64,000 nt of DNA from an uncultured Actinomycetes bacterium (GTDB lineage Bacteria; Actinomycetota; UBA4738; JBBDTT01). The DNA lies in the NCBI GenBank assembly GCA_963742735.1, contig CAVUMN010000004.1, forward strand, positions 352,001 through 416,000, written 5' to 3'. This document shows, in pieces, positions 18,960 through 34,451 of the stretch (position 1 is its first letter; every line of letters begins with the position of its first letter). The notes under the pieces are model-generated. The model made no database searches and was not told the DNA's origin. It saw only the letters and a program-made list of their open reading frames with translations. The position numbers and the translations under genes were made by a program.

Positions 18960-21049
18960 TGCGCCGAACCGTCGCCGTGGCCTCGCTCACGGTCGCGATC
19001 GCCTTCCTCGTCCTGCCTGCGGGGCCGGCCGGCGCGCGCGACTGGCCCGTGGTGGGCGGCGGCGACAAGTACCGCTCGGGCTACAACCCCGACGAGGTGG
19101 CTCCGTACTTCGTGCGCGGCGGCGCGGCGCTGCAGCCCAAGCCGGAATGGATCACGAAGATCTCGGACCTCCCGTCGGGCGTGTTCATCATGGGCGGGAC
19201 CATGGTCGCCGACGGCAAGGTCTACGTGACCGGCGCCTCGACGAACACGATCCTTGCCCTCGACCAGAAGACCGGCATGCCGATCTGGCGGTTCTCGCCC
19301 GACGCGCGGGGCTCGAAGAACCTGCCCGGCGACGGCTACACCGGGGCGTACACGGCCACCAATGCACCCCGGTGGGTGAACGGTGTCGTCTACGCGTCCT
19401 TCACCAACGGGGTCGTGTACGCGCTGAACGGCGACAACGGCCGGAAGCTCTGGCGGTGGGAGGTCCCGGACATCGGCGGCCCGCTCGAGGTCACCGACCA
19501 CACGCTGCCCGCCGACGTGGTGTGGGACTTCACCAACCCCGAGCACCGCGCCAACCCGCTGCGCCGTGAGGTGCCGCCGTTCACCGGCGACTACCCGAAG
19601 TTCCACTCGGTGGTGGACGAGTGCTTCGGCCGGGTCCACGTCGAGACCCTCGACGGCCGGCTGTTCTCGATCGACGCCAGCACCGGAAAGACGCTGTGGC
19701 ACCGGTACGCCGGCGCGCCCGACTGGCCGGGAGAGTTCAACTACCCGGACAACGCGGTGGGCGGACTGACCCCCAACCTCGGCCGACCGACGCGGCGGTT
19801 CGAGGCGCGGCCGGGACCCGGCTGCCTCGGGAAGTACCTGTTCCTCCCCACCGAGGATGGCTACGTGAAGCTGTTCGACGAGAAGACCGGGAGGTTCCTC
19901 GGCGCCTACGACTTCCTGCATGTCGGCGACCTCGGGTTCGTCCACGACGGGGGCGCCGGGCTGGCCATCCCGCCCGGGACCGCGGCCAACCAGGGCACGA
20001 CCCCGGACCTGGTCGTGAACTCGGTCAACAACCGGATGGTCCGCATCAACGTCCCGGACATGACCCCGCAGTGGCGCCACAGCGAGGGCAGCACGGGTCA
20101 GCTGTCCCTGTGTATCGATCGCTCCGACCGGTCCACGTGCACGGTAGTCCCGACCACCATGGACTCGATGTCGGACGGCCCGATCGGCGGCGCGGTGTTC
20201 GGCGGCAACCTGTCCGTCGACCTCGACCTCGGCGTGCTCGCCAACGCGAACCAGGACGGTCACCTCTACATGTGGCGGGACATCGACGTGCAGGGCCAGG
20301 ACCCGCCGCTGATCGCGAATCCGGACGGCTCGGGCATCGGGACGTGGACCAGCGCCCCCAACCCGCAGTCGATCCCCAACCCGCCGAAGACCTCGATCTC
20401 GCACTACCTGCCGCGCGACGGCAAGAACGGCCCGTGGCAGTACGCCACCTCGGTCGTTTCCTCGTCGGTCATGGGCGGGGGCGTCGTCTACTACAACGCG
20501 TCCTGGGAGCACGCGATGTACGGCATCCAGTACGCCCAGGGCGGCCAGGTGCTGGAGACGCCGAAGCTCGTGTTCAAGTACACGCTCCAGCGGGACAAGG
20601 ACTTCAAGTACCCGCCGTTCGGCGACACGTACCCCGAGGACATCGTCGACCTCGACCGCCTGTTCATGGGGTCGCCCTCCCTGGCCGACGGCCACCTGTA
20701 CACCACGTCGTTCGACGGCAACGTCTACTCGTTCAACCTGCAGAAGCCCGTGGCGCGCACGCAGAAGAACCTCGCGCTCCTCGGCTCGGGCCTGGTCCCG
20801 TTCGTCCCCGCGTGGACCCAGGCCCGCGGTGAGTTCGACCGCGTCTGGACCGACGCCGACTGGTACCGAAACCAGCTGAACCCCAATCCCGACTACAAGC
20901 TGCCGGCGGGCCTGGTGCCCATCGGCGTGCCGGCCGCCGCCCTGGCCCTGTGGGTCCGCCGGCGGATCCTCCAGGGACAGCTGCTGCCCCAGCGCAGCCG
21001 GGTCGACCTCCGCCCGCCCGACCTGGAGATGCGATCGCGATGGCGATAG
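18959..21049 (+). CDS. Secreted PQQ-binding-like (BamB-type) beta-propeller protein with C-terminal anchor
   Basis: Signal peptide, WPVVGG...RSG, repeated ALDQKTG..IW, ALNGDNG..LW, SIDASTG..LW blades; C-terminal hydrophobic stretch plus RRR. Confidence 0.75.
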   Translation: MRRTVAVASLTVAIAFLVLPAGPAGARDWPVVGGGDKYRSGYNPDEVAPYFVRGGAALQPKPEWITKISDLPSGVFIMGGTMVADGKVYVTGASTNTILALDQKTGMPIWRFSPDARGSKNLPGDGYTGAYTATNAPRWVNGVVYASFTNGVVYALNGDNGRKLWRWEVPDIGGPLEVTDHTLPADVVWDFTNPEHRANPLRREVPPFTGDYPKFHSVVDECFGRVHVETLDGRLFSIDASTGKTLWHRYAGAPDWPGEFNYPDNAVGGLTPNLGRPTRRFEARPGPGCLGKYLFLPTEDGYVKLFDEKTGRFLGAYDFLHVGDLGFVHDGGAGLAIPPGTAANQGTTPDLVVNSVNNRMVRINVPDMTPQWRHSEGSTGQLSLCIDRSDRSTCTVVPTTMDSMSDGPIGGAVFGGNLSVDLDLGVLANANQDGHLYMWRDIDVQGQDPPLIANPDGSGIGTWTSAPNPQSIPNPPKTSISHYLPRDGKNGPWQYATSVVSSSVMGGGVVYYNASWEHAMYGIQYAQGGQVLETPKLVFKYTLQRDKDFKYPPFGDTYPEDIVDLDRLFMGSPSLADGHLYTTSFDGNVYSFNLQKPVARTQKNLALLGSGLVPFVPAWTQARGEFDRVWTDADWYRNQLNPNPDYKLPAGLVPIGVPAAALALWVRRRILQGQLLPQRSRVDLRPPDLEMRSRWR

Positions 21050-21693
21050 CGACCCGGCCCCCACAGCTGAAGCGGCCCGCGCGCGCGACGCCGTCCCGGC
21101 TCGAGGACACGCAGGCTTTCACGGTCCCCTGGCGGACGATCGCGCTCTCGGTCCTGCTGGTGATCGCCGTCATGGCGGCGTGGTCGGTGACCACCAACAC
21201 CTACGCGGTCCTTGGGCAGCAGCGCCTGCAGGACCGGTGGGCGGACACGATCGCGCGGGGCGAGACCCTCGAGTCGCCGGCGATCGGCCAGGCCGTCGCC
21301 CGAATCTCGATCCCCGCCCTGGGGATCGAGCGCGTGGTGGTCGAGGGGGCCACGCACGAGCAGCTGCGGACGGCGCCCGGCCATCTTCCGGACTCCGCCC
21401 TGCCCGGCACCATCGGCAACAGCGTGATCCGCGGGCACCGGCTGCTTTGGTCCGGCCCGTTCCGCCGGATCGATGAGCTGAACTTCGGCTCGCCGATCAT
21501 GGTTCAGCTCGCCGACGGCCGCGTCTACACCTTCCTCGTCTCCGGCGTGTTCCACATGCTCCCGAACGACCCCGACATCGTCTCCAGCGAGAGCGCGGGG
21601 CCGATGATCACCCTGGTCACCAGCGACCCCCCCTTCCGCGCCGACCGGGTCCTGGTCGTCAAGGCCTTCCTGCCCTTCGAGGAGACTTCGTGA
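21040..21693 (+). CDS. Sortase-fold protein (class D/E-like) with Ser replacing the catalytic Cys
   Basis: TM anchor; ARISIPALG..VVVEG; PGH; GNSVIRGHR; TLVTS instead of TLxTC. Confidence 0.8.
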   Translation: MAIATRPPQLKRPARATPSRLEDTQAFTVPWRTIALSVLLVIAVMAAWSVTTNTYAVLGQQRLQDRWADTIARGETLESPAIGQAVARISIPALGIERVVVEGATHEQLRTAPGHLPDSALPGTIGNSVIRGHRLLWSGPFRRIDELNFGSPIMVQLADGRVYTFLVSGVFHMLPNDPDIVSSESAGPMITLVTSDPPFRADRVLVVKAFLPFEETS

Positions 21694-24701: not shown

Positions 24702-26912
24702 ATGGCCCGGAACAGGACCTGGGAGCAACTGCGGGCGGCCTCCGAGGAGGCCAAGAAGGAGCGCGATCGCCGGAAGGCCGTCCGGCTGATACAGAAGATC
24801 GCCGCCGAGGGGCACGACCCGAAGCAGGTCGTGCGGGAGGCGATGCGGGGCAACGGCCGGCGCGCTGCGCCCGAGCCCGAGATCGACATCCCCCTCGACG
24901 GGGACGTCACGGGCGACGGCGTCACCAACTGGGAGGACGCGGTCCAGCACACGCCGTTCGACCCCCGGAGCCTGCTGAAGCCGAAGGTCATCTTCTTCGC
25001 GCTGCTGCTGGTCGCGCTGATCGCCTACCCGCTGGGTGGGTTCCGGCTGCTGCCGCTCGATCAGGACAAGTTCCTGTCGCTCAACTTCATCCTGCAGTAC
25101 GCGATCATCATCACCGGCCTGAACCTCGTCGCCGGGTTCACCGGGCTGCTGTCGCTCGGCCAGTCGATCTTCACCGCGATCGGCGGCTACGCCTCGGCGA
25201 TCATCACGCTCCAGATGTTTCCGGACTGGCACGGCGGGCCGTGGGTCGGGCTCGCCGTGGCCATGGTGGTCAGCGCGCTCATCGCCATCGTCCTCGCGTT
25301 GCCGTCCCTGCGGGTCCGGGGCGCATACCTGGCCATCGTGACCTTGGCCTTCGTTCCCATCTTCGCCACCGTGTTCGCCCAGGGCCCCTCCGGCATCTTC
25401 GGCGGGAGCGAGGGGCTGCGAGACATCCGCGCGGTGGTCCAGACCTCCACGGCCTCGGTGACCGAGGCGAACACGCTCTATCCGCCATGGGGCGGGAACC
25501 CGATGACGAATGTGGACCTCTACTTCCTGACGCTGGCGTTCCTCGTCGCGATCACCCTTGGCACACGGAACCTGATCAAGTCCCGGTGGGGCCGCGCGTG
25601 GATGGCCATCCGGGAGTCCGAGATCGCCGCGAAGTCTTCCGGGGTGAACGTCTACCGGTTCAAGATCACCGCCTTTGCGATATCGGCCGTGTTCGCGGCC
25701 ATCGCGGGGTGGGTCTTCGTGCACAACGGCGGGTTCATCTCACCGAACTTCCCGTCGCAGATCCCCGAGTCGTTCAAGTACGTCGTGATCATGATCGTGG
25801 GCGGCACCGGGACCCTGGCCGGGCCCATCGTGGGCTCGGCGGTGCTCGAGATCGGCCGTGTCCTCCCGGAGCCGTTCGGTACCCGGAACTATCCCGACTT
25901 CCAGAACCTGATCCTGGGTGCGGTTGCCCTGTTCACGGTCATCACCGCCCCCGGCGGCGTCGTCGGCGTGGCCAAGCAGACGGCCGAGCGGTTCCGGCGC
26001 CGGTTCATCGGCGGGCGGCGGCCGACGGTGCAGGCGGTGCCGATCGCGCAGGAGATGACGCGTCCGCAGCCCCGCCTGGACCTGGTGGAGCTCGAGGACG
26101 ACATCATTCTGGAGGCCCGCGAGATGTCGAAGATCTTCGGTGGCCTCCGCGCCAACAACAAGGTGTCGATCAAGGTCAAGCGGGGCACCGTCCACGCCCT
26201 GATCGGCCCCAACGGGTCTGGGAAGACCACGTTCATCAACGTGGTCACCGGCGTGTACACGCCCGAAGAGGGCTCCGTCTATTTCATGGGCCGCAAGATC
26301 TCCGGCGAGCCTGCCTACGTCACCGTCGAGATGGGCCTCGGCCGCACGTTCCAGAACCTCCAGCTGTGGCGGCGGATGACGGTCCTCGAGAACGTCATGG
26401 TCGGGCTGCACGTCCGGTCCCGGGCCAGCCTGATGGCCTCGGCCGCGCGCATGCCGTGGGCCCGCCGAGAGGAGGAGCGCCTGCGCCAGCGCTCGCTGGG
26501 CCTCCTCGCGTTCGTCGGCCTGGAGCGCTACGCGGACGTCCTGGCCGGCCAGCTTCCCTACGGACCGCAACGGCGGCTCGAGGTCGCCCGGGCGCTGGCG
26601 CTGGATCCCGCGCTGCTGGTCCTGGACGAGCCCGCGGCGGGCCTGAACCCTGCCGAGGTCGGGGAGTTCACCGACCTGATCCGCAAGATCCGCGACACCG
26701 GCATCACCGTGTTCCTGATCGAGCACCACATGGACCTCGTCCTGGCGGTGTCCGACCAGATCAGCGTCCTCGACTACGGCACGAAGATCGCCGACGGCAG
26801 CCCTCGCGAGGTCGCCTCGGACCCGAAGGTCATCGAGGCCTACCTGGGGGCGGAGGGCGGCGAGGCCGAGGACGAGGAAGCCGCCGCCGAGGCCGAGCGA
26901 GTGGGAGCGTAG
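24702..26912 (+). CDS. Fused LivM-like permease and LivG-like ATPase with N-terminal extension
   Basis: GLLSLGQ, YLAIVT, WGRAWMAIRE; GPNGSGKTT, RTFQN, VLDEPAAGL, IEHHM. Confidence 0.9.
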   Translation: MARNRTWEQLRAASEEAKKERDRRKAVRLIQKIAAEGHDPKQVVREAMRGNGRRAAPEPEIDIPLDGDVTGDGVTNWEDAVQHTPFDPRSLLKPKVIFFALLLVALIAYPLGGFRLLPLDQDKFLSLNFILQYAIIITGLNLVAGFTGLLSLGQSIFTAIGGYASAIITLQMFPDWHGGPWVGLAVAMVVSALIAIVLALPSLRVRGAYLAIVTLAFVPIFATVFAQGPSGIFGGSEGLRDIRAVVQTSTASVTEANTLYPPWGGNPMTNVDLYFLTLAFLVAITLGTRNLIKSRWGRAWMAIRESEIAAKSSGVNVYRFKITAFAISAVFAAIAGWVFVHNGGFISPNFPSQIPESFKYVVIMIVGGTGTLAGPIVGSAVLEIGRVLPEPFGTRNYPDFQNLILGAVALFTVITAPGGVVGVAKQTAERFRRRFIGGRRPTVQAVPIAQEMTRPQPRLDLVELEDDIILEAREMSKIFGGLRANNKVSIKVKRGTVHALIGPNGSGKTTFINVVTGVYTPEEGSVYFMGRKISGEPAYVTVEMGLGRTFQNLQLWRRMTVLENVMVGLHVRSRASLMASAARMPWARREEERLRQRSLGLLAFVGLERYADVLAGQLPYGPQRRLEVARALALDPALLVLDEPAAGLNPAEVGEFTDLIRKIRDTGITVFLIEHHMDLVLAVSDQISVLDYGTKIADGSPREVASDPKVIEAYLGAEGGEAEDEEAAAEAERVGA

Positions 26913-26914
26913 AC

Positions 26915-27709
26915 ATGGCCAGGACCAAGGCAGCCGCGGAGACCGACGAGACCACCGAGCCCGAGGAGCAGGCAGCCGCGCCGGACGGCGGCGCGCCGCT
27001 CCTGAAGGTCGACACGCTGTCGGTCTTCTACGGGGCCATCGAGGCCCTGCGCAGCATCTCCTTCGAGGTCCGCGAGGGCGAGGTCGTGGTGATCATCGGC
27101 TCGAACGGAGCGGGGAAGACGACGACCCTGAAGACCCTGTCCGGCCTCCCCGAGCTCCTGAAGACGGTCCGGGGCCACGTGGAGTTCCGGGGCCAGCGCG
27201 TGGACGGCCTGTCCCCGAGCAAGATCGCCAAGATGGGCCTGGCCCACGTCCCGGAGGGCCGGAAGATCTTTCCCGACCAGTCGGTGCGGGACAACCTGCT
27301 CCTGGGCGCGTTCCAGCGCGACGACGGCGAGGTCGAGGCCGACATCGAGAAGATGTACGAGCGGTTCCCGATCCTCGGCGAGCGCAAGGGCCAGATGGCC
27401 GGGCTGATGTCCGGCGGCGAGCAGCAGATGCTCGCCATCGCCCGGGCCCTGATGGCCCGGCCGAGGATGATCCTGTTCGACGAGCCGTCGATGGGGCTCG
27501 CCCCGCTCATCGTGAAGCGGGTGTTCGAGATCATCGCCGAGCTCAAGAAGGAGGGGAAGACGATCCTGCTCGTCGAGCAGATGGCGTTCCAGGCCCTCGG
27601 CCTGGCCGACCGGGCCTACGTCCTGGAGACGGGCGAGATCACCCTCGAGGGCAGCGGCCAGGAGCTGCTGAACGACCCCCGGGTCAAGGAAGCGTATCTG
27701 GGGGCGTAG
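26915..27709 (+). CDS. livF: LivF-like ABC ATPase
   Basis: GSNGAGKTT, VPEGR, MSGGEQQM, FDEPSMGL, VEQ. Confidence 0.9.
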   Translation: MARTKAAAETDETTEPEEQAAAPDGGAPLLKVDTLSVFYGAIEALRSISFEVREGEVVVIIGSNGAGKTTTLKTLSGLPELLKTVRGHVEFRGQRVDGLSPSKIAKMGLAHVPEGRKIFPDQSVRDNLLLGAFQRDDGEVEADIEKMYERFPILGERKGQMAGLMSGGEQQMLAIARALMARPRMILFDEPSMGLAPLIVKRVFEIIAELKKEGKTILLVEQMAFQALGLADRAYVLETGEITLEGSGQELLNDPRVKEAYLGA

Positions 27710-28460
27710 CCCCCGATTCGCCGCCCGCCGAAACCGATAGCTGGTCCCCGACCGCCCCCTGGATCTCCTCGGCCATGCGCCGCTGGAACGCGGTCATCAG
27801 GACCGTGGACGCGATCGGGTTCAAGCGCTCGACGGACTGCCGGATCCGGTCCCACTGCTGGGGGGGATGCCCGGCCGCCTCGAACGGCCCCCAGATGTGC
27901 TCCAGGAACAGACGCACGAACGTCCGGGCCACGGCGTCCGCGTCGCGGGCGACCTCCTCCATCACCGCGAGGGCCTCGCCCAGAGGAACGCCGAGGGCCA
28001 CGACCTGCTCGCCCGCCCGCAGCAGCGTCGGGCTGTCCACCCGGAACCGGCCGTCCTCGAGCGGGCTGAGGATCCCGAGCTCGGCGCCCCGGCGGACGGC
28101 TTCGGGATCGAGCGTTCCGTAGCGCCGGGCGAGCTCCTCGGCCTCGATGATCTCCGGCTCCTCGGGCGCCCAGGGCACCAGCAGGGCGGTCCCGAACCGC
28201 AGCGCTTCGTCGACGCCCACGCCGGGGGCGACGTCGAGCAGCTTGCGGATGGCCTCGAGGTTGAAGCCGGCCTCCTGGAGCTCCCGGATCAGCTGGATGC
28301 GGGCCTCGTGGACCGCCCCGTAGTACCCGGTCCGGCCGCGGATCTCGGGCGGCGAGATCAGCCCCCGGCTCTGGTAGGCGCGGATGTTGCGGGCGGTGAG
28401 GCCCGTGCGCCGGGCCAGCTCGTCGATCGTGACCCCGAGGGCCGTCTCCACCTCCGCCAT
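27684..28460 (-). CDS. MerR family transcriptional regulator
   Basis: TIDELARRTGLTARNIRAYQSRGLI..P..RGRTGYY MerR HTH. Confidence 0.9.
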   Translation of the reverse strand: MAEVETALGVTIDELARRTGLTARNIRAYQSRGLISPPEIRGRTGYYGAVHEARIQLIRELQEAGFNLEAIRKLLDVAPGVGVDEALRFGTALLVPWAPEEPEIIEAEELARRYGTLDPEAVRRGAELGILSPLEDGRFRVDSPTLLRAGEQVVALGVPLGEALAVMEEVARDADAVARTFVRLFLEHIWGPFEAAGHPPQQWDRIRQSVERLNPIASTVLMTAFQRRMAEEIQGAVGDQLSVSAGGESGATPPDTLP

Positions 28461-28478
28461 GTCGGCCGATCTTACCAC

Positions 28479-28509
28479 TTGACAACGTTACATCAAGTTG
28501 TGTAACATT
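28479..28509 (+). promoter_or_regulatory. Sigma70-type promoter overlapped by an inverted repeat (putative MerR operator)
   Basis: TTGACA-N18-TAACAT; AAcGTTACA-N8-TGTAACaTT dyad across the spacer and -10. Confidence 0.7.
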
Positions 28510-28539: not shown

Positions 28540-29652
28540 ATGACCACCACGAGCACGCGGACCGCCCCGTTCACCCGGATCGACCACTTCGACGGGCCCG
28601 ATCTCGAGACCACCCCGGCCTCCCAGCTCAGGCGGATCCGCGCCCAGGCGCCGATGTTCGCCGACTGGTTCCGCGCCACCGGTCGCGTGGACACCTTCGC
28701 GGCGCGTTCGCTGGTCACGCTCCCCTACCCCCGGCGCTTCGCGCTGTGGGACGCGTGCACGGCGCCGGTCCCGTACGTCTGGATGACGAACCGGATGTTC
28801 GTGATCCGGTGGCAGGAGGACGGCCGCACGCGGACCCTGGTCGCCGAGCCCTCCGACTACGAGCTCGGCCTGAACACCCCGTTCCTGCTTCGCAGCATCG
28901 ACCGGCTGCCGATGCGCCGCGAGCGGGCGCTCGACGCCTTCTTCACTCGCCACGGACGGATCGTGGGGCACCTGGCCGAGATGGGGATCGCCCCCGAGGA
29001 CGTGGACTACCTCGCTTTCGACCACCTGCACACCCAGGACGTCCGCCGGCTGGTGGGGACGAACGGGCCAGCCCAGGACCTTGGGTACGCGGACGGCCCG
29101 GTGCCGGCCCTGTTCCCCAACGCCCGACTGATCGTCCAGCACGACGAGGTCGCCCACGTCCGCGACGTCCACCCGTTCCAGGCCCGGTTCCATCAGAGCG
29201 ACACCTACGGCGACATCCGCCAGGAGGCCCTGCTGTTGATCGAGGGCGACGTCCTGGTCGCCCCGGGGCTGGCGTTCCTCCGGACCCCCGGCCACACCTT
29301 CGGCAACCACACCCTGGTCGTGAACACGGGCCGGGGCATCTTCACCTCGTCCGAGAACGGGATCGCGGTGGAGTGCTACGCGCCGGAGGCGTCGCGGCTG
29401 CCCGGCGTGCGCCGGTGGGCAGCCCGCGAGGGCCTCGAGGTGGTCATGAACTTCAACACGCCGGAGTTCGCGAGCTGGCAATACAACTCCATGGTCAAGG
29501 AGAAGCTCATCGCCGACCCGATCCCCGGGCGGCCCGAGCTCCCGCAGGTGTTCCCGTCCTCGGAGCTGACGCGGCACTACCTGGCCCCGGGGATCCGCCC
29601 CATCTACGAGCACGGCGACCTGACGGTCGGCCGAGGGAGTGAGACACGATGA
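28540..29652 (+). CDS. Atypical metallo-beta-lactamase-fold hydrolase
   Basis: GIAPEDVDYLAFDHLHTQD, TPGHTFGNH, FPNARLIVQ; AGGAGG SD. Confidence 0.7.
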   Translation: MTTTSTRTAPFTRIDHFDGPDLETTPASQLRRIRAQAPMFADWFRATGRVDTFAARSLVTLPYPRRFALWDACTAPVPYVWMTNRMFVIRWQEDGRTRTLVAEPSDYELGLNTPFLLRSIDRLPMRRERALDAFFTRHGRIVGHLAEMGIAPEDVDYLAFDHLHTQDVRRLVGTNGPAQDLGYADGPVPALFPNARLIVQHDEVAHVRDVHPFQARFHQSDTYGDIRQEALLLIEGDVLVAPGLAFLRTPGHTFGNHTLVVNTGRGIFTSSENGIAVECYAPEASRLPGVRRWAAREGLEVVMNFNTPEFASWQYNSMVKEKLIADPIPGRPELPQVFPSSELTRHYLAPGIRPIYEHGDLTVGRGSETR

Positions 29653-32174
29653 CGTCGTTCCTGAAGGAACTGGCGAGCTACGGGACCGACTGGCTCTACC
29701 TCCTGGCGCCCCTCGGCGCGGGCCTGGCCTTCGCGGTGTGGGCCGTGGCCACCGGCGAGCCCGGCAGGGGGAACCTGGTCCAGCGGCTGCTCCACCGGGG
29801 CGGGTCCTCGCTGGAACGGGTTACGGGGCTTCCGGCGTGGTGCGCGGGCGGGCTCCTCACCGGCCTTTGGGCTCTGACCATCGCCCTGATCGGGTTCGTG
29901 TGGGACGTGGCCCTGCACGTGGACGCCGGGCGCGACACGTTCCTGTACACGCCGGGCCACATGGCGATCGTGACCGGGCTCGGACTGATCCTGGCCGCCG
30001 GGGCCGTGTCGATCATGCTCGCCACGAACGACGAGTCCGACACCGGGCTCCGCTTCCGCCACCTCCGCATCCCCCGCGGCGCGCTCGCCCTGGTGGTGCT
30101 GGGAGCCGGCGCCCTGGTCGGGTTCCCCCTCGACGAGTTCTGGCATCGCGCCTACGGCATCGACGTGACGATGTGGGGCCCCACCCACCTGATCATGATC
30201 ACGGGCGCCTCCCTGTCGCCCATTGCCCTGTGGCTCCTGCTCACCGAGGCCGGCGCGCGGGCCGGGCGCCCCGGCTTCGTCCGCGGGATGCGGGTCCTGC
30301 TGGTTGGCGCGCTGCTTACCGGGCTGTCCACGTTCCAGCTGGAGTTCGACCTCGGGGTCCCCCAGTTCCAGCACCTGTATCACCCCGTGCTGATCGCGCT
30401 GGCCGCCTCCGTGGGCCTCGTGGCCGCGCGGACGATCCTCGGCCGCGGCGGCGCGCTGGTCGCCGTCGGAGGGTTCCTGGCCATCCGGGCCGCCCTGGCC
30501 GTGCTGACCGGCGGCGTCCTGAACCTGACCCTCCCCCGCTTCCCGCTCTACCTCGGCGCCGCCCTCAGCGTCGAGCTCGCGTTCTGGCTCGGGCGGAGGC
30601 TCCGGCCGGCGGCCCTGGCGCTGGCGGCCGGGGCGGCCGTGGGGACCGCCGGGCTGGCCGCGGAGTGGGGCTGGACGCAGGTGTGGGGCCGCCACCCCTG
30701 GGGCGAGTCCCTGGTTCCGAGCGCCCTCACCGCGGTGGCCATCGCGGTGCCCGGGGCCCTGATCGGGATCGCCCTCGGCCGGGTCGCGTCGTTCCGCACG
30801 GCCGGCATCCGGTGGCCGGTCGTCCTGGCCGCCGGGCTGGCGATCGTCGCCCTCCTGGGCGTGCCCCTGCAGCGCAACGCCGACCCCATCCGGGCCGAGG
30901 TCGTGACCCGGCCGGCCGGTGCCGGGCTCGTGGACGTCGAGGTCACGCTGAACCCGGCGAACGAGGGGTACGGGGCCGACTGGTTCGAGGTCCTGTCCTG
31001 GCAGGGCGGGCGCGCACGCGTCAGCCACATGGTGCCCCTGGGCGACGGGCGATTCGCCGCGGAGCGCCCGGTGCCGGTGGGCGCTCCCTGGAAGAGCGTC
31101 ATCCGGCTGGCCCATCACGACCTGGTCATGGCCGTCCCCGTCTACATGCCGGCCGACCCCGAGCTCGGCCTGACGGAGATCCCCGTCGCCTCTCGTCGAG
31201 TGACGACCATCCAGCGCGACACCGACATGCTGATGCGCGAGGCGCACGGCGGACCCATCCTGCCGGCCCTCGTGGCCTACGGGTTCATCCTGGCGATCGC
31301 CGTTGTGTGGGTGACGGTGCTGGCCCGGGGGTATGCGGCGCTGAGCCGTCCTGGGCCCGGCACCGGCGGCGGACCGCTGTCCGGACGCCGCATCGTGGTC
31401 ACCGGCGCCCGCGGGGGCATCGGAACGGCCGCGGTGAAGGCCCTGCGGGCCGAGGGGGCGCGCGTCGTCGGGGTCGACCGGCGTCCGGGCCCCGACGTGG
31501 TGGCGGGCGACGTCACCGACCTCGCCTCGATGGAGGCGGCGCTCGCGGAGGCCGCGCGGCGGCTGGGCGGCATCGACACCCTCGTCAACAACGCCGGCAT
31601 CGGGCGCGCCCAGGACTCGGGAGCGGCCCCGGACCTGGATTCCCGGGCCACGCTCGAGGTCAACCTGCTGGGAACCTGGATCACGACCGCGGCCGCGAGG
31701 CCCCACCTGCTCGCCGAGCGGGGACACGTGGTCAACGTGGCCTCGGGGCTCGCGATCGTGAACGTCCCCTATTCGGCCGCGTACGCCGCCAGCAAGCGCG
31801 GCGTGCACGCCTACTCCGACGTGCTCCGCCTGGAGTACGGCGGCCGGCTCACCGTGACCACCGTCGATCCGGGCTACGTGCGCACGGCCATCCATGACCG
31901 GACCGCGGAGGCCGGCGTGTCGATCGACGGGCTGGTCTGGGCGGACTCGGTCAACCAGGCGGCGGCGGCCATCGTCCGGGCGTGCATCGACCGGCCCCGG
32001 GGCGTCTCCACCAGCGCCAGGACGGGTCTCGGCCTCGCCCTGGCCCGGCACTTCCCGCGGGCCACCGACGTCGTCGTCGGGTGGCGGTTCCGGCGCTCCG
32101 GCCGCACCCTCGCGCCGGCCGCCGCACCCCACCGGCCCGCCCTCCAGCCGCGGGAGGTACGGGCAGCGGGCTGA
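29649..32174 (+). CDS. Polytopic membrane metalloprotein (PmoC/AmoC-like His/Asp motifs) fused to a C-terminal SDR oxidoreductase
   Basis: WDVALH..GRD..TPGH and LDEFWH..GID..GPTH in TM helices; SDR motifs TGARGGIG, NNAG, YAASK, PG. Confidence 0.7.
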   Translation: MTSFLKELASYGTDWLYLLAPLGAGLAFAVWAVATGEPGRGNLVQRLLHRGGSSLERVTGLPAWCAGGLLTGLWALTIALIGFVWDVALHVDAGRDTFLYTPGHMAIVTGLGLILAAGAVSIMLATNDESDTGLRFRHLRIPRGALALVVLGAGALVGFPLDEFWHRAYGIDVTMWGPTHLIMITGASLSPIALWLLLTEAGARAGRPGFVRGMRVLLVGALLTGLSTFQLEFDLGVPQFQHLYHPVLIALAASVGLVAARTILGRGGALVAVGGFLAIRAALAVLTGGVLNLTLPRFPLYLGAALSVELAFWLGRRLRPAALALAAGAAVGTAGLAAEWGWTQVWGRHPWGESLVPSALTAVAIAVPGALIGIALGRVASFRTAGIRWPVVLAAGLAIVALLGVPLQRNADPIRAEVVTRPAGAGLVDVEVTLNPANEGYGADWFEVLSWQGGRARVSHMVPLGDGRFAAERPVPVGAPWKSVIRLAHHDLVMAVPVYMPADPELGLTEIPVASRRVTTIQRDTDMLMREAHGGPILPALVAYGFILAIAVVWVTVLARGYAALSRPGPGTGGGPLSGRRIVVTGARGGIGTAAVKALRAEGARVVGVDRRPGPDVVAGDVTDLASMEAALAEAARRLGGIDTLVNNAGIGRAQDSGAAPDLDSRATLEVNLLGTWITTAAARPHLLAERGHVVNVASGLAIVNVPYSAAYAASKRGVHAYSDVLRLEYGGRLTVTTVDPGYVRTAIHDRTAEAGVSIDGLVWADSVNQAAAAIVRACIDRPRGVSTSARTGLGLALARHFPRATDVVVGWRFRRSGRTLAPAAAPHRPALQPREVRAAG

Positions 32175-32246: not shown

Positions 32247-32275
32247 TTGAATGGGCAGGTGCGCCCACCTATGCT
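32247..32275 (+). promoter_or_regulatory. Sigma70-type promoter
   Basis: TTGAAT-N17-TATGCT upstream of AAGGAGG and the ATG at 32307. Confidence 0.55.
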
Positions 32276-32306
32276 CGACCGACCCGCCAAGGAGGCTTGC
32301 CCCCCG

Positions 32307-33683
32307 ATGCGATCCGCCCGCACGGTCTTCCGGACGATCACCCTGCTTCTCGTGCTCACCACGGCCTTCGTCGGGCTTCCCGCCGGTGCGGCCCTGGCGA
32401 ATCACGGGTCGAACACGATCGACGCCGACCCCGAGACCCAGTCGAAGGAAGCCAACGCCGAGGGTGAGGCCGGCACCGCCACGATCACGGCGGTCTACTC
32501 CTCTCCCCTGATCATCGCGCTCGCGGGACCCAACATCGACTTCGAGATCGAGTCCGGGCCCGGCGACACCGACGGGAACACTCCCCGCTCGCCGGACATG
32601 ACCTGCGACATCGGCCCGCTGATCCTCACCACCTGCTCGGTGGACTACACGGCGCCGAGCCGCGGGATCGACATCGTCCGCGTGTGGATCGACCACGACG
32701 CCGACGACCAGACCGTGGAATACGACAACGACGAGGGCCTCGACGAGACGATCGTGCCCGGGGCGGCCGAGCCGGACATCACCGACGTGGTCCACGTCAA
32801 CTGGACGCAGGGTCCGGCGGTCAAGCTGGACTGCGACGACCGAGCGGGCGACGACACCGAGAAGTACTTCACCTCCGAGAGCCCCACCTACAAGTGCAAG
32901 GCCTCCGACGCCGGCAACGTGGGTCTCGAGGGCATCCTGATCGACGGCGAGAACCTCAGCTCCAACGGCGTCAACGATCCCGAGAGCGTCGACGCCGACT
33001 ACGACAACTTCTGCACCACGGGTGGCGACGGCACCTGCACGGCCTCGATACCCACCCAGGGCGACATGGGCACCGCCGACATCTGCTTCTGGACCGACAA
33101 CGACGAGGACAACGTGTACGACCCGCTGGCGGAGAACGAGGACGCGTCCGTCAACCACACCGACGGAGGCGACTGCGACAGCGAGAAGCACGACGAGCCC
33201 GAGAACAGCGACCGCACCGACGTCGTCCGGCCGACGTGGGAGCGGGAGACCGTCGCGCCGGTCAGCGTTCTGGTCCGCCCGAAACGGGGCGTGACCTACC
33301 AGCAGAACGCGATCATGCAGTTCCAGGCCACCGCCACCGACGCCAACTCCAGCGTGGAGCTGGTGCAGTTCGCCCTGCGCAAGTACCTCAAGAGCGGCAA
33401 GTGCGCGAACTGGGACGGCACGAAGTTCGTCACCGGGTCCTGCTCCCTGCGGGTGTGGATCAACGGCAGCTTCGACACCAAGGGGACCACCGACCCTGCG
33501 GACGACGTGTGGAAATACGACCTCCCGAACCGAATGAACCCGAGCACGGCCGGCGGTTACCAGGCCAAGGACTACGTGGTCCTGTCGCGGGCGTGGGACT
33601 CGTCCGGGAACATCGAGTCGGTGTTCACCAACGGACGGAACCGCAACGTGTTCGAGGTCGCGCCCTCCCCGCAGCCGGCGTAA
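32307..33683 (+). CDS. Secreted acidic, Cys-containing Ig-like repeat protein
   Basis: Signal peptide ending ALA; Asp-rich beta domains with paired Cys; C-terminal YVVLSRAWDSSGNIE Ig strand. Confidence 0.7.
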   Translation: MRSARTVFRTITLLLVLTTAFVGLPAGAALANHGSNTIDADPETQSKEANAEGEAGTATITAVYSSPLIIALAGPNIDFEIESGPGDTDGNTPRSPDMTCDIGPLILTTCSVDYTAPSRGIDIVRVWIDHDADDQTVEYDNDEGLDETIVPGAAEPDITDVVHVNWTQGPAVKLDCDDRAGDDTEKYFTSESPTYKCKASDAGNVGLEGILIDGENLSSNGVNDPESVDADYDNFCTTGGDGTCTASIPTQGDMGTADICFWTDNDEDNVYDPLAENEDASVNHTDGGDCDSEKHDEPENSDRTDVVRPTWERETVAPVSVLVRPKRGVTYQQNAIMQFQATATDANSSVELVQFALRKYLKSGKCANWDGTKFVTGSCSLRVWINGSFDTKGTTDPADDVWKYDLPNRMNPSTAGGYQAKDYVVLSRAWDSSGNIESVFTNGRNRNVFEVAPSPQPA

Positions 33684-33686
33684 CCG

Positions 33687-34451
33687 CTAGCCGGATCCCA
33701 CCGGGTCGGTCCTGATCAGCCGCGCCCGCACGATCAGCCGCTCGCGCGCGCTTCCCTCGGGATGGCAGGTCGTGAGGGTCAGGTAGAAGCCGTCGAGCTC
33801 GTCAACCACCGACCAGTCGGCAGGGTGGGTGACGAAGGGGCTTCGCACGACCTCGTACCAGCAGGTCCCCAGCGGCGTCTCCAGCACGATCTCGTCACCG
33901 ATCTCCATCTCGTCGACCCGGGCGAACGGCTTCGAGTAGGTGGTGCGGTGGCCGGCGATGGCCGCGTTCCCGGACTCGCACGGAAGCGCCGTCCCCTGAT
34001 AGTGCCCGGCCCCCGCCCGCAGGGACGAGAGCGTGGTGCCCTCCACGACGATCGCGTCCACCCCCAGGCTCGGAATCTCGATGCGCGTCAGCGCCGAGCC
34101 GGGCTCGATCGAGCGCGTCTCGTAGGCCTGACGGGTCTCCGGCGAGCGGAACTCCGTCGCCAGGCGGTCCTGCTTCCAGTCGGCGTACCAGTTCGTGGCG
34201 AAGGGGAACATGAACATCCCCACCCCGGTCAGGAAGAGCAGGACCGACAGGCCCATGAGCATCCTCCGGGCGACCGGCCGGCGCCGCCAGACGTCGAACA
34301 GCAGGCCCACGACCGAGCCCGCACGGCGCACCGGCCCGGGCGGGCGCTCGTCCGGGACCGAAGGCCGCGGCAGGACCTCGCGGGGGTAGATCGGGTCCTT
34401 CGGAAGCCGCGGCAGGACCGGTTCGTCGTCGGGGAGATCGCCGGTTGACAC
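33687..34451 (-). CDS. Class E-like sortase (canonical catalytic residues)
   Basis: RIEIPSLG..IVVEG, AGHRTTY, TLTTC, ERLIVRA. Confidence 0.9.
   Translation of the reverse strand: MSTGDLPDDEPVLPRLPKDPIYPREVLPRPSVPDERPPGPVRRAGSVVGLLFDVWRRRPVARRMLMGLSVLLFLTGVGMFMFPFATNWYADWKQDRLATEFRSPETRQAYETRSIEPGSALTRIEIPSLGVDAIVVEGTTLSSLRAGAGHYQGTALPCESGNAAIAGHRTTYSKPFARVDEMEIGDEIVLETPLGTCWYEVVRSPFVTHPADWSVVDELDGFYLTLTTCHPEGSARERLIVRARLIRTDPVGSG

Follow-up and report, generated by a model that had tools for sequence, protein, structure and literature searches.

Can the metal-binding core of PmoC, the subunit C of particulate methane monooxygenase (pMMO), occur in a single polypeptide that is joined to a dehydrogenase? 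The question is raised by an open reading frame (ORF) of 841 codons, without internal stop, at 29649..32174 on the forward strand of the DNA analysed here, a stretch of 64,000 nucleotides from an uncultured Actinomycetes bacterium (contig CAVUMN010000004.1, positions 352,001 to 416,000) that we call the window and whose numbering is used throughout. The 841-residue product consists of a membrane domain, a short Gly/Pro linker and a short-chain dehydrogenase/reductase (SDR), and a first-pass annotation made from the letters alone had seen in it a single-chain distant relative of the copper membrane monooxygenases (CuMMO). Where and how pMMO and ammonia monooxygenase (AMO) activate O2 is a long-standing question, and these three-subunit enzymes, which lose activity outside membranes, are hard to study. 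On balance, the gene probably encodes a PmoC-related metal-binding membrane enzyme that is functionally coupled to the SDR; that the metal would be copper and the chemistry that of an oxygenase is a more tentative proposal, made by analogy.

The likeness to PmoC, seen with hhalign, Foldseek and ESM, lies in a core of four transmembrane (TM) helices, TM2–TM5 (residues 63–201, 29835..30251, +), which consists of two repeated helical hairpins. Each hairpin carries one motif, defined from the translation and from conservation. Motif 1 (residues 85–104, 29901..29960, +) contains D86, H90, R95, D96 and H104 and motif 2 (residues 161–180, 30129..30188, +) contains D162, E163, H166, D172 and H180; the translation places D86/H90/R95/D96/H104 and D162/H166/H180 exactly where the first-pass annotation had read them. 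PmoC/AmoC sequences for comparison came from metagenome contigs scanned with primer A189f, in which the ORF preceding the pmoA-like ORF was taken. This gave 46 candidates, 37 of them in one cluster, of which 35 were used after two cut at contig ends had been dropped; the alignment built from them (A2) holds 29 sequences, six with duplicate motif strings being omitted. As a positive control, the Pfam AmoC model (PF04896) recognises all six of the ORFs tested (E 2e-38 to 5e-130, 133–433 bits). The patterns D-x3-H-x12-H and N-x3-H-x13-H are present in 35 of 35, several with strings identical to those that the first-pass annotation had cited for PmoC, which are exact.

In pMMO the CuC site is formed by Asp156, His160 and His173, with Arg165 hydrogen-bonded in the site, and the CuD site by Asn227, His231 and His245 (passages of PMC12576850). 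The CuC/CuD pocket of subunit C, with its two sites 5.7 Å apart, has been identified as the active site (passages of PMC11725843), and it is there that current structures locate it (passages of PMC11725843 and PMC12804982). For AMO, sections of PMC12804982 describe a hydrophobic channel formed by AmoC TM3–6 and AmoA TM1, with CuC–CuD in its upper part, and a CuC site of four ligands, D136, H140, D146 and H153, in which the fourth-ligand Asp lies ten residues after the first. When the window protein is compared with these sites, D86/H90/H104 map to Asp156/His160/His173 of pMMO, R95 maps to Arg165 and D96 to the fourth AMO CuC ligand. The CuC pattern D-x3-H-x4-R-D-x6-H is matched in motif 1, the last spacing being one residue longer than in all 35 PmoC/AmoC ORFs, and the x3/x13 spacing of motif 2 is that of CuD, with Asp for Asn in 222 of 224 aligned sequences. 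Both proteins (for PmoC/AmoC: PF04896; 7S4H chain C, 9LEG chain C) carry two adjacent His/carboxylate (or amide) ligand sets on consecutive helical hairpins, in the order D-x3-H...H followed by D/N-x3-H-x13-H, and share a Trp before the first His, an Arg-Asp pair and a Thr-Pro before the third His. The separation of the sites is similar (76 residues here versus 71 in PmoC/AmoC), Lys/Arg-rich loops on the cytoplasmic side flank the hairpins and the sites lie toward the outer face.

Conservation was measured in an alignment of the query with 223 of 267 stored homologues, those of at least 500 residues (n = 224). All six ligands proposed by the first-pass annotation are kept in at least 215 of the 224 sequences (D86 217, H90 217, H104 218, D162 222, H166 223, H180 222), as are R95 (216), D96 (215) and D172, the latter together with G170 and W176 lying likewise within 215–223. 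Further near-invariant residues are E232 (224), E309 (222), Q239 (216) and E339 (211). A smaller alignment (A1, the query and 53 of 120 listed matches) gives the same picture.

Profile comparison with hhalign, whose E-values are pairwise and not database-wide, gives 69.9% probability (E 4e-5, score 37.4) for family residues 55–210 against A2 and 61.2% for residues 1–270. Hairpin 1 alone reaches 90.9% (E 1e-6) against hairpin 1 of PmoC and 85.5% against whole PmoC. Reversed-profile controls stay at 0.1–0.2% with scores of 12.6–13.3, one hundred column-shuffled PmoC alignments score 13.4 on average (sd 2.8, maximum 23.0), and real unrelated TM profiles, those of PmoA and PmoB, score 10.8–24.1. 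When greedily extended, the alignment is co-linear, query residues 55–205 lying on PmoC residues 100–240 with both motifs in register; its posterior confidence over the second motif is nil. A model cropped to residues 8–270 (predicted local distance difference test, pLDDT, 90.4), computed from an alignment of the window protein and 72 of the 80 homologous loci described below, was then compared with 350,542 PDB chains using Foldseek. Seven chains at ranks 4, 6, 7, 11, 24, 30 and 41, all subunit C, are retrieved (E 0.3–0.8, none significant) out of the 14 PmoC/AmoC chains of distinct sequence that the PDB contains, and 7s4h_C has the highest probability (0.95) and template-modelling score (TM-score, 0.43/0.47) among the rows listed. 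In the ESM Atlas, restricted to named clusters, the first Pfam-carrying cluster found with residues 55–210 is AmoC (score 0.88, 193 of 256 features). Several lines of evidence, each weak to moderate, point the same way: ligand identity, spacing, membrane side, the hairpin-1 profile, the enrichment in Foldseek and the AmoC cluster of ESM. On these grounds a distant kinship of the TM2–TM5 core with the metal-binding core of PmoC/AmoC is most probable, and we consider common descent of the two likely.

A number of observations weigh against this kinship, or against its extension to a copper oxygenase. Homology to PmoC over the whole core is below conventional significance by every measure. The window protein does not match PF04896 at E<=1, nor does any of 54 family members at E<=10, and sequence and profile searches of the PDB found no PmoC. 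A first hhalign comparison with the shallow alignment A1 gave only 13.6%, and the full-length profile 32.8%. In hhalign, hairpin 2 has no profile similarity to hairpin 2 of PmoC (0.1%) and the internal repeat described below is not detectable in PmoC (0.8%), so that the sequence signal is confined to about 27–41 columns. With the cropped model all Foldseek E-values fall between 0.2 and 0.9 and every TM-score is below 0.5; a search with the whole domain yields nothing in the PDB at E<=1e-3 and no pMMO chain among the matches listed. Unrelated viral helical membrane proteins, from a library searched with the same cropped query as a background calibration, reach a probability of 0.90 and TM-scores of 0.30–0.44, that search containing no PmoC and only generic helical matches. 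Moreover, since Foldseek also uses amino-acid identity, its result is not independent of the motif. The resemblance to AmoC claimed by the first-pass annotation is visible in the profile comparison of the core and of hairpin 1 but in no PF04896 match, and the structural search retrieves seven subunit C chains within the top 41 but without a significant E-value or a TM-score of 0.5.

Other points concern chemistry and context. The Asn of CuD is an Asp in the family, and two 2-His/2-Asp sites together with the conserved E200, E232, D234, E309 and E339 could likewise accommodate Zn, Mn or Fe and serve in hydrolysis or transport. In the segment TM6–TM12 and the β-sandwich that follows, nothing resembles PmoA (2.4% at most) or PmoB (0.5% at most). 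The single-chain CuMMO relative of the first-pass annotation thus stands for the subunit-C-like core only, as the remainder is unlike PmoA and PmoB. Its observation that neither pmoA nor pmoB lies in the window is borne out; in the 88.9%-complete genome PF04896, PF02461 and PF04744 likewise gave no match, a result that is weak for PF04744, which is also silent in control genomes. Within about 10 kb no cupredoxin, cytochrome or copper chaperone is found, and the neighbouring regulators belong to the type that senses small molecules and not to the metal sensors. Finally, the metal sites and the SDR are placed on opposite sides of the membrane, and 65 of 81 loci have no SDR in the available locus DNA.

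The membrane domain (residues 1–570, 29649..31358, +) was modelled with AlphaFold2 (AF2) from alignment A1 (pLDDT 91.3, predicted TM-score 0.92). The model comprises 13 TM helices, one amphipathic helix, an extracytoplasmic β-sandwich at residues 415–520 and a last TM helix at residues 537–565. Hairpin 1 is formed by helices 63–93 and 102–127 and hairpin 2 by helices 143–169 and 178–201. They are built alike, since in both the Asp and His of D-x3-H lie 7 and 3 residues before the helix end and the third His two residues into the next helix, and hhalign identifies them as an internal repeat (92.7%, E 4e-7, 50 columns in register). This register makes D172 the counterpart of D96, and because of this pairing two Asp/His/Asp/His sets are on offer. 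The mean number of Lys and Arg alternates strictly from loop to loop, with a sum of 18.2 for the loops assigned to the inside against 3.4 for the short outside ones, which indicates an outward orientation of the motif loops and the β-sandwich and a cytoplasmic SDR. Downstream of the core, TM6–TM12 (residues 208–404, 30270..30860, +; AF2 and alignment) carry the near-invariant outward-side residues E232, D234, Q239, E309, E339 and W351. The β-sandwich, delimited from the AF2 strands (residues 415–520, 30891..31208, +), has conserved W451-Q452-G453, W481-K482 and D503. TM13 (residues 537–565, 31257..31343, +; AF2 and positive-inside count) brings the chain back to the cytoplasm, where a Gly/Pro-rich linker of 16 residues (31344-31391, +), read from the translation, leads to the SDR. 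The order given by the first-pass annotation, with further TM helices after the motifs, a beta-rich segment, one TM helix and an SDR, is entirely present according to AF2 and Pfam. Its beta-rich segment corresponds to the predicted β-sandwich, but the proposed likeness to YtkA/FixH does not hold, as FixH (PF05751) does not match the window protein and matches only 1 of 54 members, at E 0.26. The β-sandwich has only non-significant Ig-like matches in Foldseek and no similarity to PmoB.

Compared with PmoC/AmoC, the family to which the protein belongs has one extra residue in motif 1 and Asp in place of the CuD Asn; its hairpins are copies of each other, which those of PmoC are not; and it contains 13 TM helices and a β-sandwich in about 590 residues, versus about 250 residues in PmoC. 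No PmoA or PmoB partners are found here, and an SDR is often fused or coupled. Orphan pmoC/amoC genes of methanotrophs and ammonia oxidisers, compared by description only, also encode a PmoC-type protein apart from pmoA and pmoB; the carriers of those are methanotrophs that also have full operons, whereas the present family is far more divergent, much larger and found in genomes in which no CuMMO genes were found.

Residues 1–570 have no match in Pfam or NCBIfam, and neither phmmer nor profile searches return a relevant PDB entry. An exhaustive search with these residues yields 1694 representatives at 50% identity with E<=1e-3, 278 of them with E<=1e-30, and a word-indexed search 555 matches. 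Most of the matches listed are 'hypothetical proteins' of about 590 residues, and 22 of the 120 listed are proteins of about 840 residues with SDR Pfam domains; by source name, standalone members are only 'hypothetical protein' and fused members are named generically after the SDR domain. The membrane domain therefore defines a large unannotated family without a Pfam or NCBIfam model. We retained 80 of 110 loci confirmed in species-representative genomes (81 with that of the window). All 80 are metagenome-assembled genomes (MAGs) and the family is found almost only in soil MAGs; the loci belong to Actinomycetota, Dormibacterota, Chloroflexota, Acidimicrobiia, Solirubrobacterales and a few Acidobacteriota. 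Among 401 genomes sampled from the window's phylum, 51 match at E<=1e-10 (in 36 of the 249 genera), a tally that includes seven unpublished genomes, all matching (G048, G336, G148, G018, G082, G391 and G174; 44 of 394 without them). Only one other genome of the window's own order has a match in this sample. Paralogues occur in some genomes, with three matches in G110 and two in G382, and the copy in G138, with two in-frame TGA codons, is possibly a pseudogene. In the full text of the literature on PmoC-like or orphan pmoC proteins and on CuMMO in Dormibacterota and Actinomycetota, supplements not covered, no description of such a family was found; the papers retrieved deal only with canonical xmoCAB or with orphan copies in methanotrophs.

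A second, shorter family is homologous to the present one over TM2–TM7 (hhalign 99.8%, E 2e-28). Its members of about 385 residues (P0289-P0297, P0298-P0414) number at least 1500 at E<=1e-3, and no Pfam domain is found in any of 120 listed. They carry both motifs, lack the β-sandwich and the later helices, and are likewise uncharacterised. In their motif 1 the spacing (x12) is precisely that of PmoC, and a gapless comparison with a PmoC motif gives identity at 9 of 18 residues. Against PmoC this sister family alone gives only 3.1%, a further point against the kinship, and we rejected it as a statistical bridge to PmoC, as it brings no gain (3.1% alone, 53.8% merged). Besides this family, the search for shorter relatives returned mostly contig-end fragments. 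Two of the sister-family members listed carry source names from Methylomirabilota MAGs.

The C-terminal module (residues 577–810, 31377..32078, +) is a classical SDR. PF00106 matches residues 582–752 with 123.8 bits against a cut-off of 26.6 (E 8e-36), and the Gly-rich motif (585–592), NNAG (647–650), the Ser in 696–700 and YxxxK (712–716) are in place, so that the SDR is intact as the first-pass annotation had stated. The Asp at the end of strand β2 (605–612) suggests NAD as the cofactor. NCBIfam yields only generic SDR models below their own cut-offs, and the nearest PDB relatives are generic too, with clavulanic acid dehydrogenase (2JAH) on top (E 3e-22). With such classical SDRs (PF00106) the module shares the Gly-rich NAD(P) motif, NNAG, Ser and YxxxK; it differs in being tethered to the membrane through TM13 of an unrelated domain and in belonging to no specific orthologue group. 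Neighbouring genes were compared by BLAST with crude ORFs of the 81 loci; as contig ends truncate many of these loci, each count is a minimum. Seven loci have the SDR fused, and in 9 more a separate gene of 55–66% identity abuts or overlaps the 3' end. In a tree of 79 rows, built after two of the 81 had been removed for having fewer than 400 aligned residues, the fused forms occupy two clades and the adjacent forms at least two others, including Chloroflexota and Dormibacterota. The fusion to a dehydrogenase noticed in the first pass is hence genuine and recurrent, being fused or adjacent in 16 of 81 loci and fused in independent assemblies. Some Dormibacterota loci without an adjacent SDR (L013:2356-3474, L018, L027, L075 and others) have a different SDR gene, 34–38% identical to the SDR of the window, about 2 kb upstream of the family gene.

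The gene is single-copy in the source genome (3.08 Mb, 5 contigs, 88.9% complete), and its third-position GC of 0.95 is like that of neighbouring genes. Immediately upstream lies a translationally coupled gene (28540..29652, +) for a divergent hydrolase of the metallo-β-lactamase (MBL) fold, assigned from NCBIfam and the PDB. Its ATG at 28540 is preceded by the ribosome-binding site GGAGGAGGG, the ORF as listed starting at TTG 28498, and its stop codon is overlapped by 4 nt by the ATG of the membrane gene (ATGA). The MBL protein has weak NCBIfam lactonase matches (E 2e-8 to 1e-3, far below cut-offs) and is only distantly like the acyl-homoserine lactone lactonases of the PDB (E ~1e-4). In 14 of the 81 loci an MBL gene of 62–80% identity stands immediately upstream.

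On the opposite strand, a divergent regulator of the MerR family (27684..28478, -; 264 residues) is recognised by PF13411 (E 5e-20, 72 bits versus a cut-off of 21.6). It has a long C-terminal domain of no known family and no Cys, and the specific metal-sensor models (CueR, MerR, ZntR) all score far below their cut-offs. A homologue is found in 36 of 81 loci, in 33 of them upstream on the opposite strand. In 12 loci a cluster of proteins of about 200 residues replaces it, which are TetR in both of the two members tested; the regulator class is thus swapped while the divergent arrangement is retained. The loci with this TetR-type divergent regulator (L013, L016, L018, L027, L054, L059, L064, L067, L070, L075, L079 and L081) are from Dormibacterota and Solirubrobacterales. 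Between the two genes, a promoter/operator-like site read by eye (28474..28509, no strand assigned) combines TTGACA, an 18-nt spacer and TAACAT with two overlapping, interleaved 9-nt inverted repeats, an arrangement compared with the layout of MerR-type promoters. De novo clustering of neighbours was abandoned for direct BLAST counts, as its largest cluster (34 loci) was an artefact merging the MBL gene with antisense ORFs over MerR; GT2, PIG-L and a DinB-type polymerase were rejected as recurring neighbours, representing lineage-specific synteny.

These data establish anatomy, residue conservation, membrane topology and gene linkage, and on them the following mechanism may be proposed. The protein would be a two-module inner-membrane enzyme, with residues 1–570 as the first module and residues 577–810 as the second. 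In the core, each hairpin would offer an Asp-x3-His at the outer helix end, a loop Asp and a His where the next helix begins, giving two neighbouring Asp/His/Asp/His candidate sites in the outer leaflet, beneath the extracytoplasmic β-sandwich. The second module would be a cytoplasmic classical SDR, probably NAD-dependent and tethered by TM13. With the MBL-fold hydrolase the gene would form a two-gene operon under the divergent MerR-type regulator, and such ligand-type regulators (MerR, TetR) fit an inducible handling of small molecules. Bacterial cuproenzymes are extracytoplasmic, and for this reason, together with the resemblance of the sites to CuC/CuD, copper would be the most likely metal. 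The outward-facing metal centre might then oxidise a hydrophobic compound that partitions into the membrane, and the SDR and the MBL-fold hydrolase might process the product in the cytoplasm, for instance from an alcohol or lactol to a carbonyl or lactone and on to an acid; alternatively, the SDR could feed in reducing equivalents.

The most substantial rival to a PmoC-related enzyme is convergence. The protein would then be unrelated to PmoC, its outward Asp/His/Asp/His pair would hold Zn, Mn or Fe, and it would act as an intramembrane metallohydrolase or another non-redox enzyme whose substrate is a xenobiotic or a lipid of the envelope, the SDR and MBL proteins providing downstream catabolism induced via MerR or TetR. 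Sets of 2 His and 2 Asp with many carboxylates are typical of Zn, Mn or Fe hydrolase sites, and such a ligand set with many conserved carboxylates is what the n = 224 alignment displays; the regulators are of the ligand type, the partner is an MBL-fold hydrolase, all homology measures stay sub-significant, hairpin 2 is unlike PmoC and comparable Foldseek scores are obtained with generic helical proteins. In crystals, zinc is taken up by the PmoC site too, as passages of PMC12804982 report. Convergence does not readily account for the sharing of residues beyond the needs of metal binding (the Trp before the His, the Arg-Asp pair, the Thr-Pro before the last His), for the same residue order, spacing and membrane side as in PmoC, or for a hairpin-1 score that exceeds the shuffled nulls by about 8.6 sd; the presence of 7 out of 14 distinct PmoC/AmoC sequences of the PDB among the top 41 of 350,542 chains, and an independent language-model search that names AmoC first, also speak for descent. 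We regard convergence as rather unlikely. At the opposite end, the family might be a lineage of self-sufficient, single-polypeptide copper membrane oxygenases with a PmoC-type CuC/CuD centre, the extra helices and the β-sandwich replacing PmoA and PmoB, and with an NADH-dependent SDR in some lineages as supplier of reductant or as product dehydrogenase, a more far-reaching idea that we hold to be unlikely.

Metal handling in place of catalysis is a further alternative, in which the outer-leaflet Asp/His sites would bind or move Cu or Zn (in uptake, efflux or sequestration, or to supply an envelope enzyme), with the β-sandwich as a periplasmic metal-binding cap. Compatible with this are the conserved His and Asp that a 13-TM protein bearing a periplasmic β-sandwich has on its outer side, a layout that may loosely resemble CopC-CopD-type proteins, and the DNA-binding part of the MerR regulator, for which CueR-type models give the best score (E 4e-10, far below the cut-off). 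Yet that regulator lacks Cys and has a long C-terminal domain of a non-metal type, other lineages use TetR, no Pfam copper-handling family matches the window protein or the 54 members, no metal-homeostasis genes lie within about 10 kb, and the recurrent SDR fusion and hydrolase coupling point to small-molecule chemistry; we find it improbable. An altogether different explanation concerns the fusion alone, which could be an assembly or frame error uniting two genes that are separate in the source organism. As the orthologous SDR is a separate gene abutting or overlapping the membrane gene end in 9 of 81 loci, a one-base error could create the fusion, and metagenome contigs leave the junction bin 31342-31375 uncovered. 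The frame, however, is open through the 16-residue Gly/Pro linker; 22 of the 120 homologues listed carry the SDR and come from four assembly sources (ENA, Logan, JGI and NCBI), with the same fused architecture in P0002 (82% identity), P0003 (81%) and P0004 (95%); and the fused forms make two separate clades. Since independent assemblies carry it, the junction is accepted, and an error is highly improbable. No sequencing run contains more than 0.14 of the sampled words, and there is no RNA run among the matches listed. A depth spike at 31546-31613 in soil metagenomes (summed word depth reaching about 1350, loose contig ends on either side) was discarded as gene coverage, as it corresponds to the conserved SDR NNAG region of many unrelated organisms.

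What follows depends on which reading applies. If the PmoC-related reading is right, the family keeps the whole ligand set of subunit C in one polypeptide without PmoA or PmoB; should it bind copper and turn over substrates, it would be a simpler system in which to study the CuC/CuD site, and the copper membrane oxygenases known from soil bacteria would become a wider group. The self-sufficient oxygenase, if true, would amount to an unrecognised aerobic route for the oxidation of hydrophobic compounds and would model the pMMO/AMO active site in a minimal form that might be expressible, in a lineage widespread in uncultured soil Actinomycetota, Dormibacterota and Chloroflexota. A hydrolase or metal handler would still leave an abundant unannotated family of membrane metalloproteins with a shorter sister family. 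The regulators and partner enzymes are conserved enough for experiments to be designed around them.

A few features of the surrounding DNA stand apart from these questions. Downstream of the gene, 32247-33683 (+) encodes a secreted-looking, Asp-rich protein of 478 residues without a family match, present in 1 of 81 loci, and is followed by a convergent sortase gene (33687-34451, -); a second sortase gene (20950-21693, +) lies about 9 kb upstream. ABC permease and ATPase are separate genes in usual Liv systems, and a single ORF of 736 residues at 24702-26912 (+) joins a Liv-type ABC permease domain and an ABC ATPase domain.

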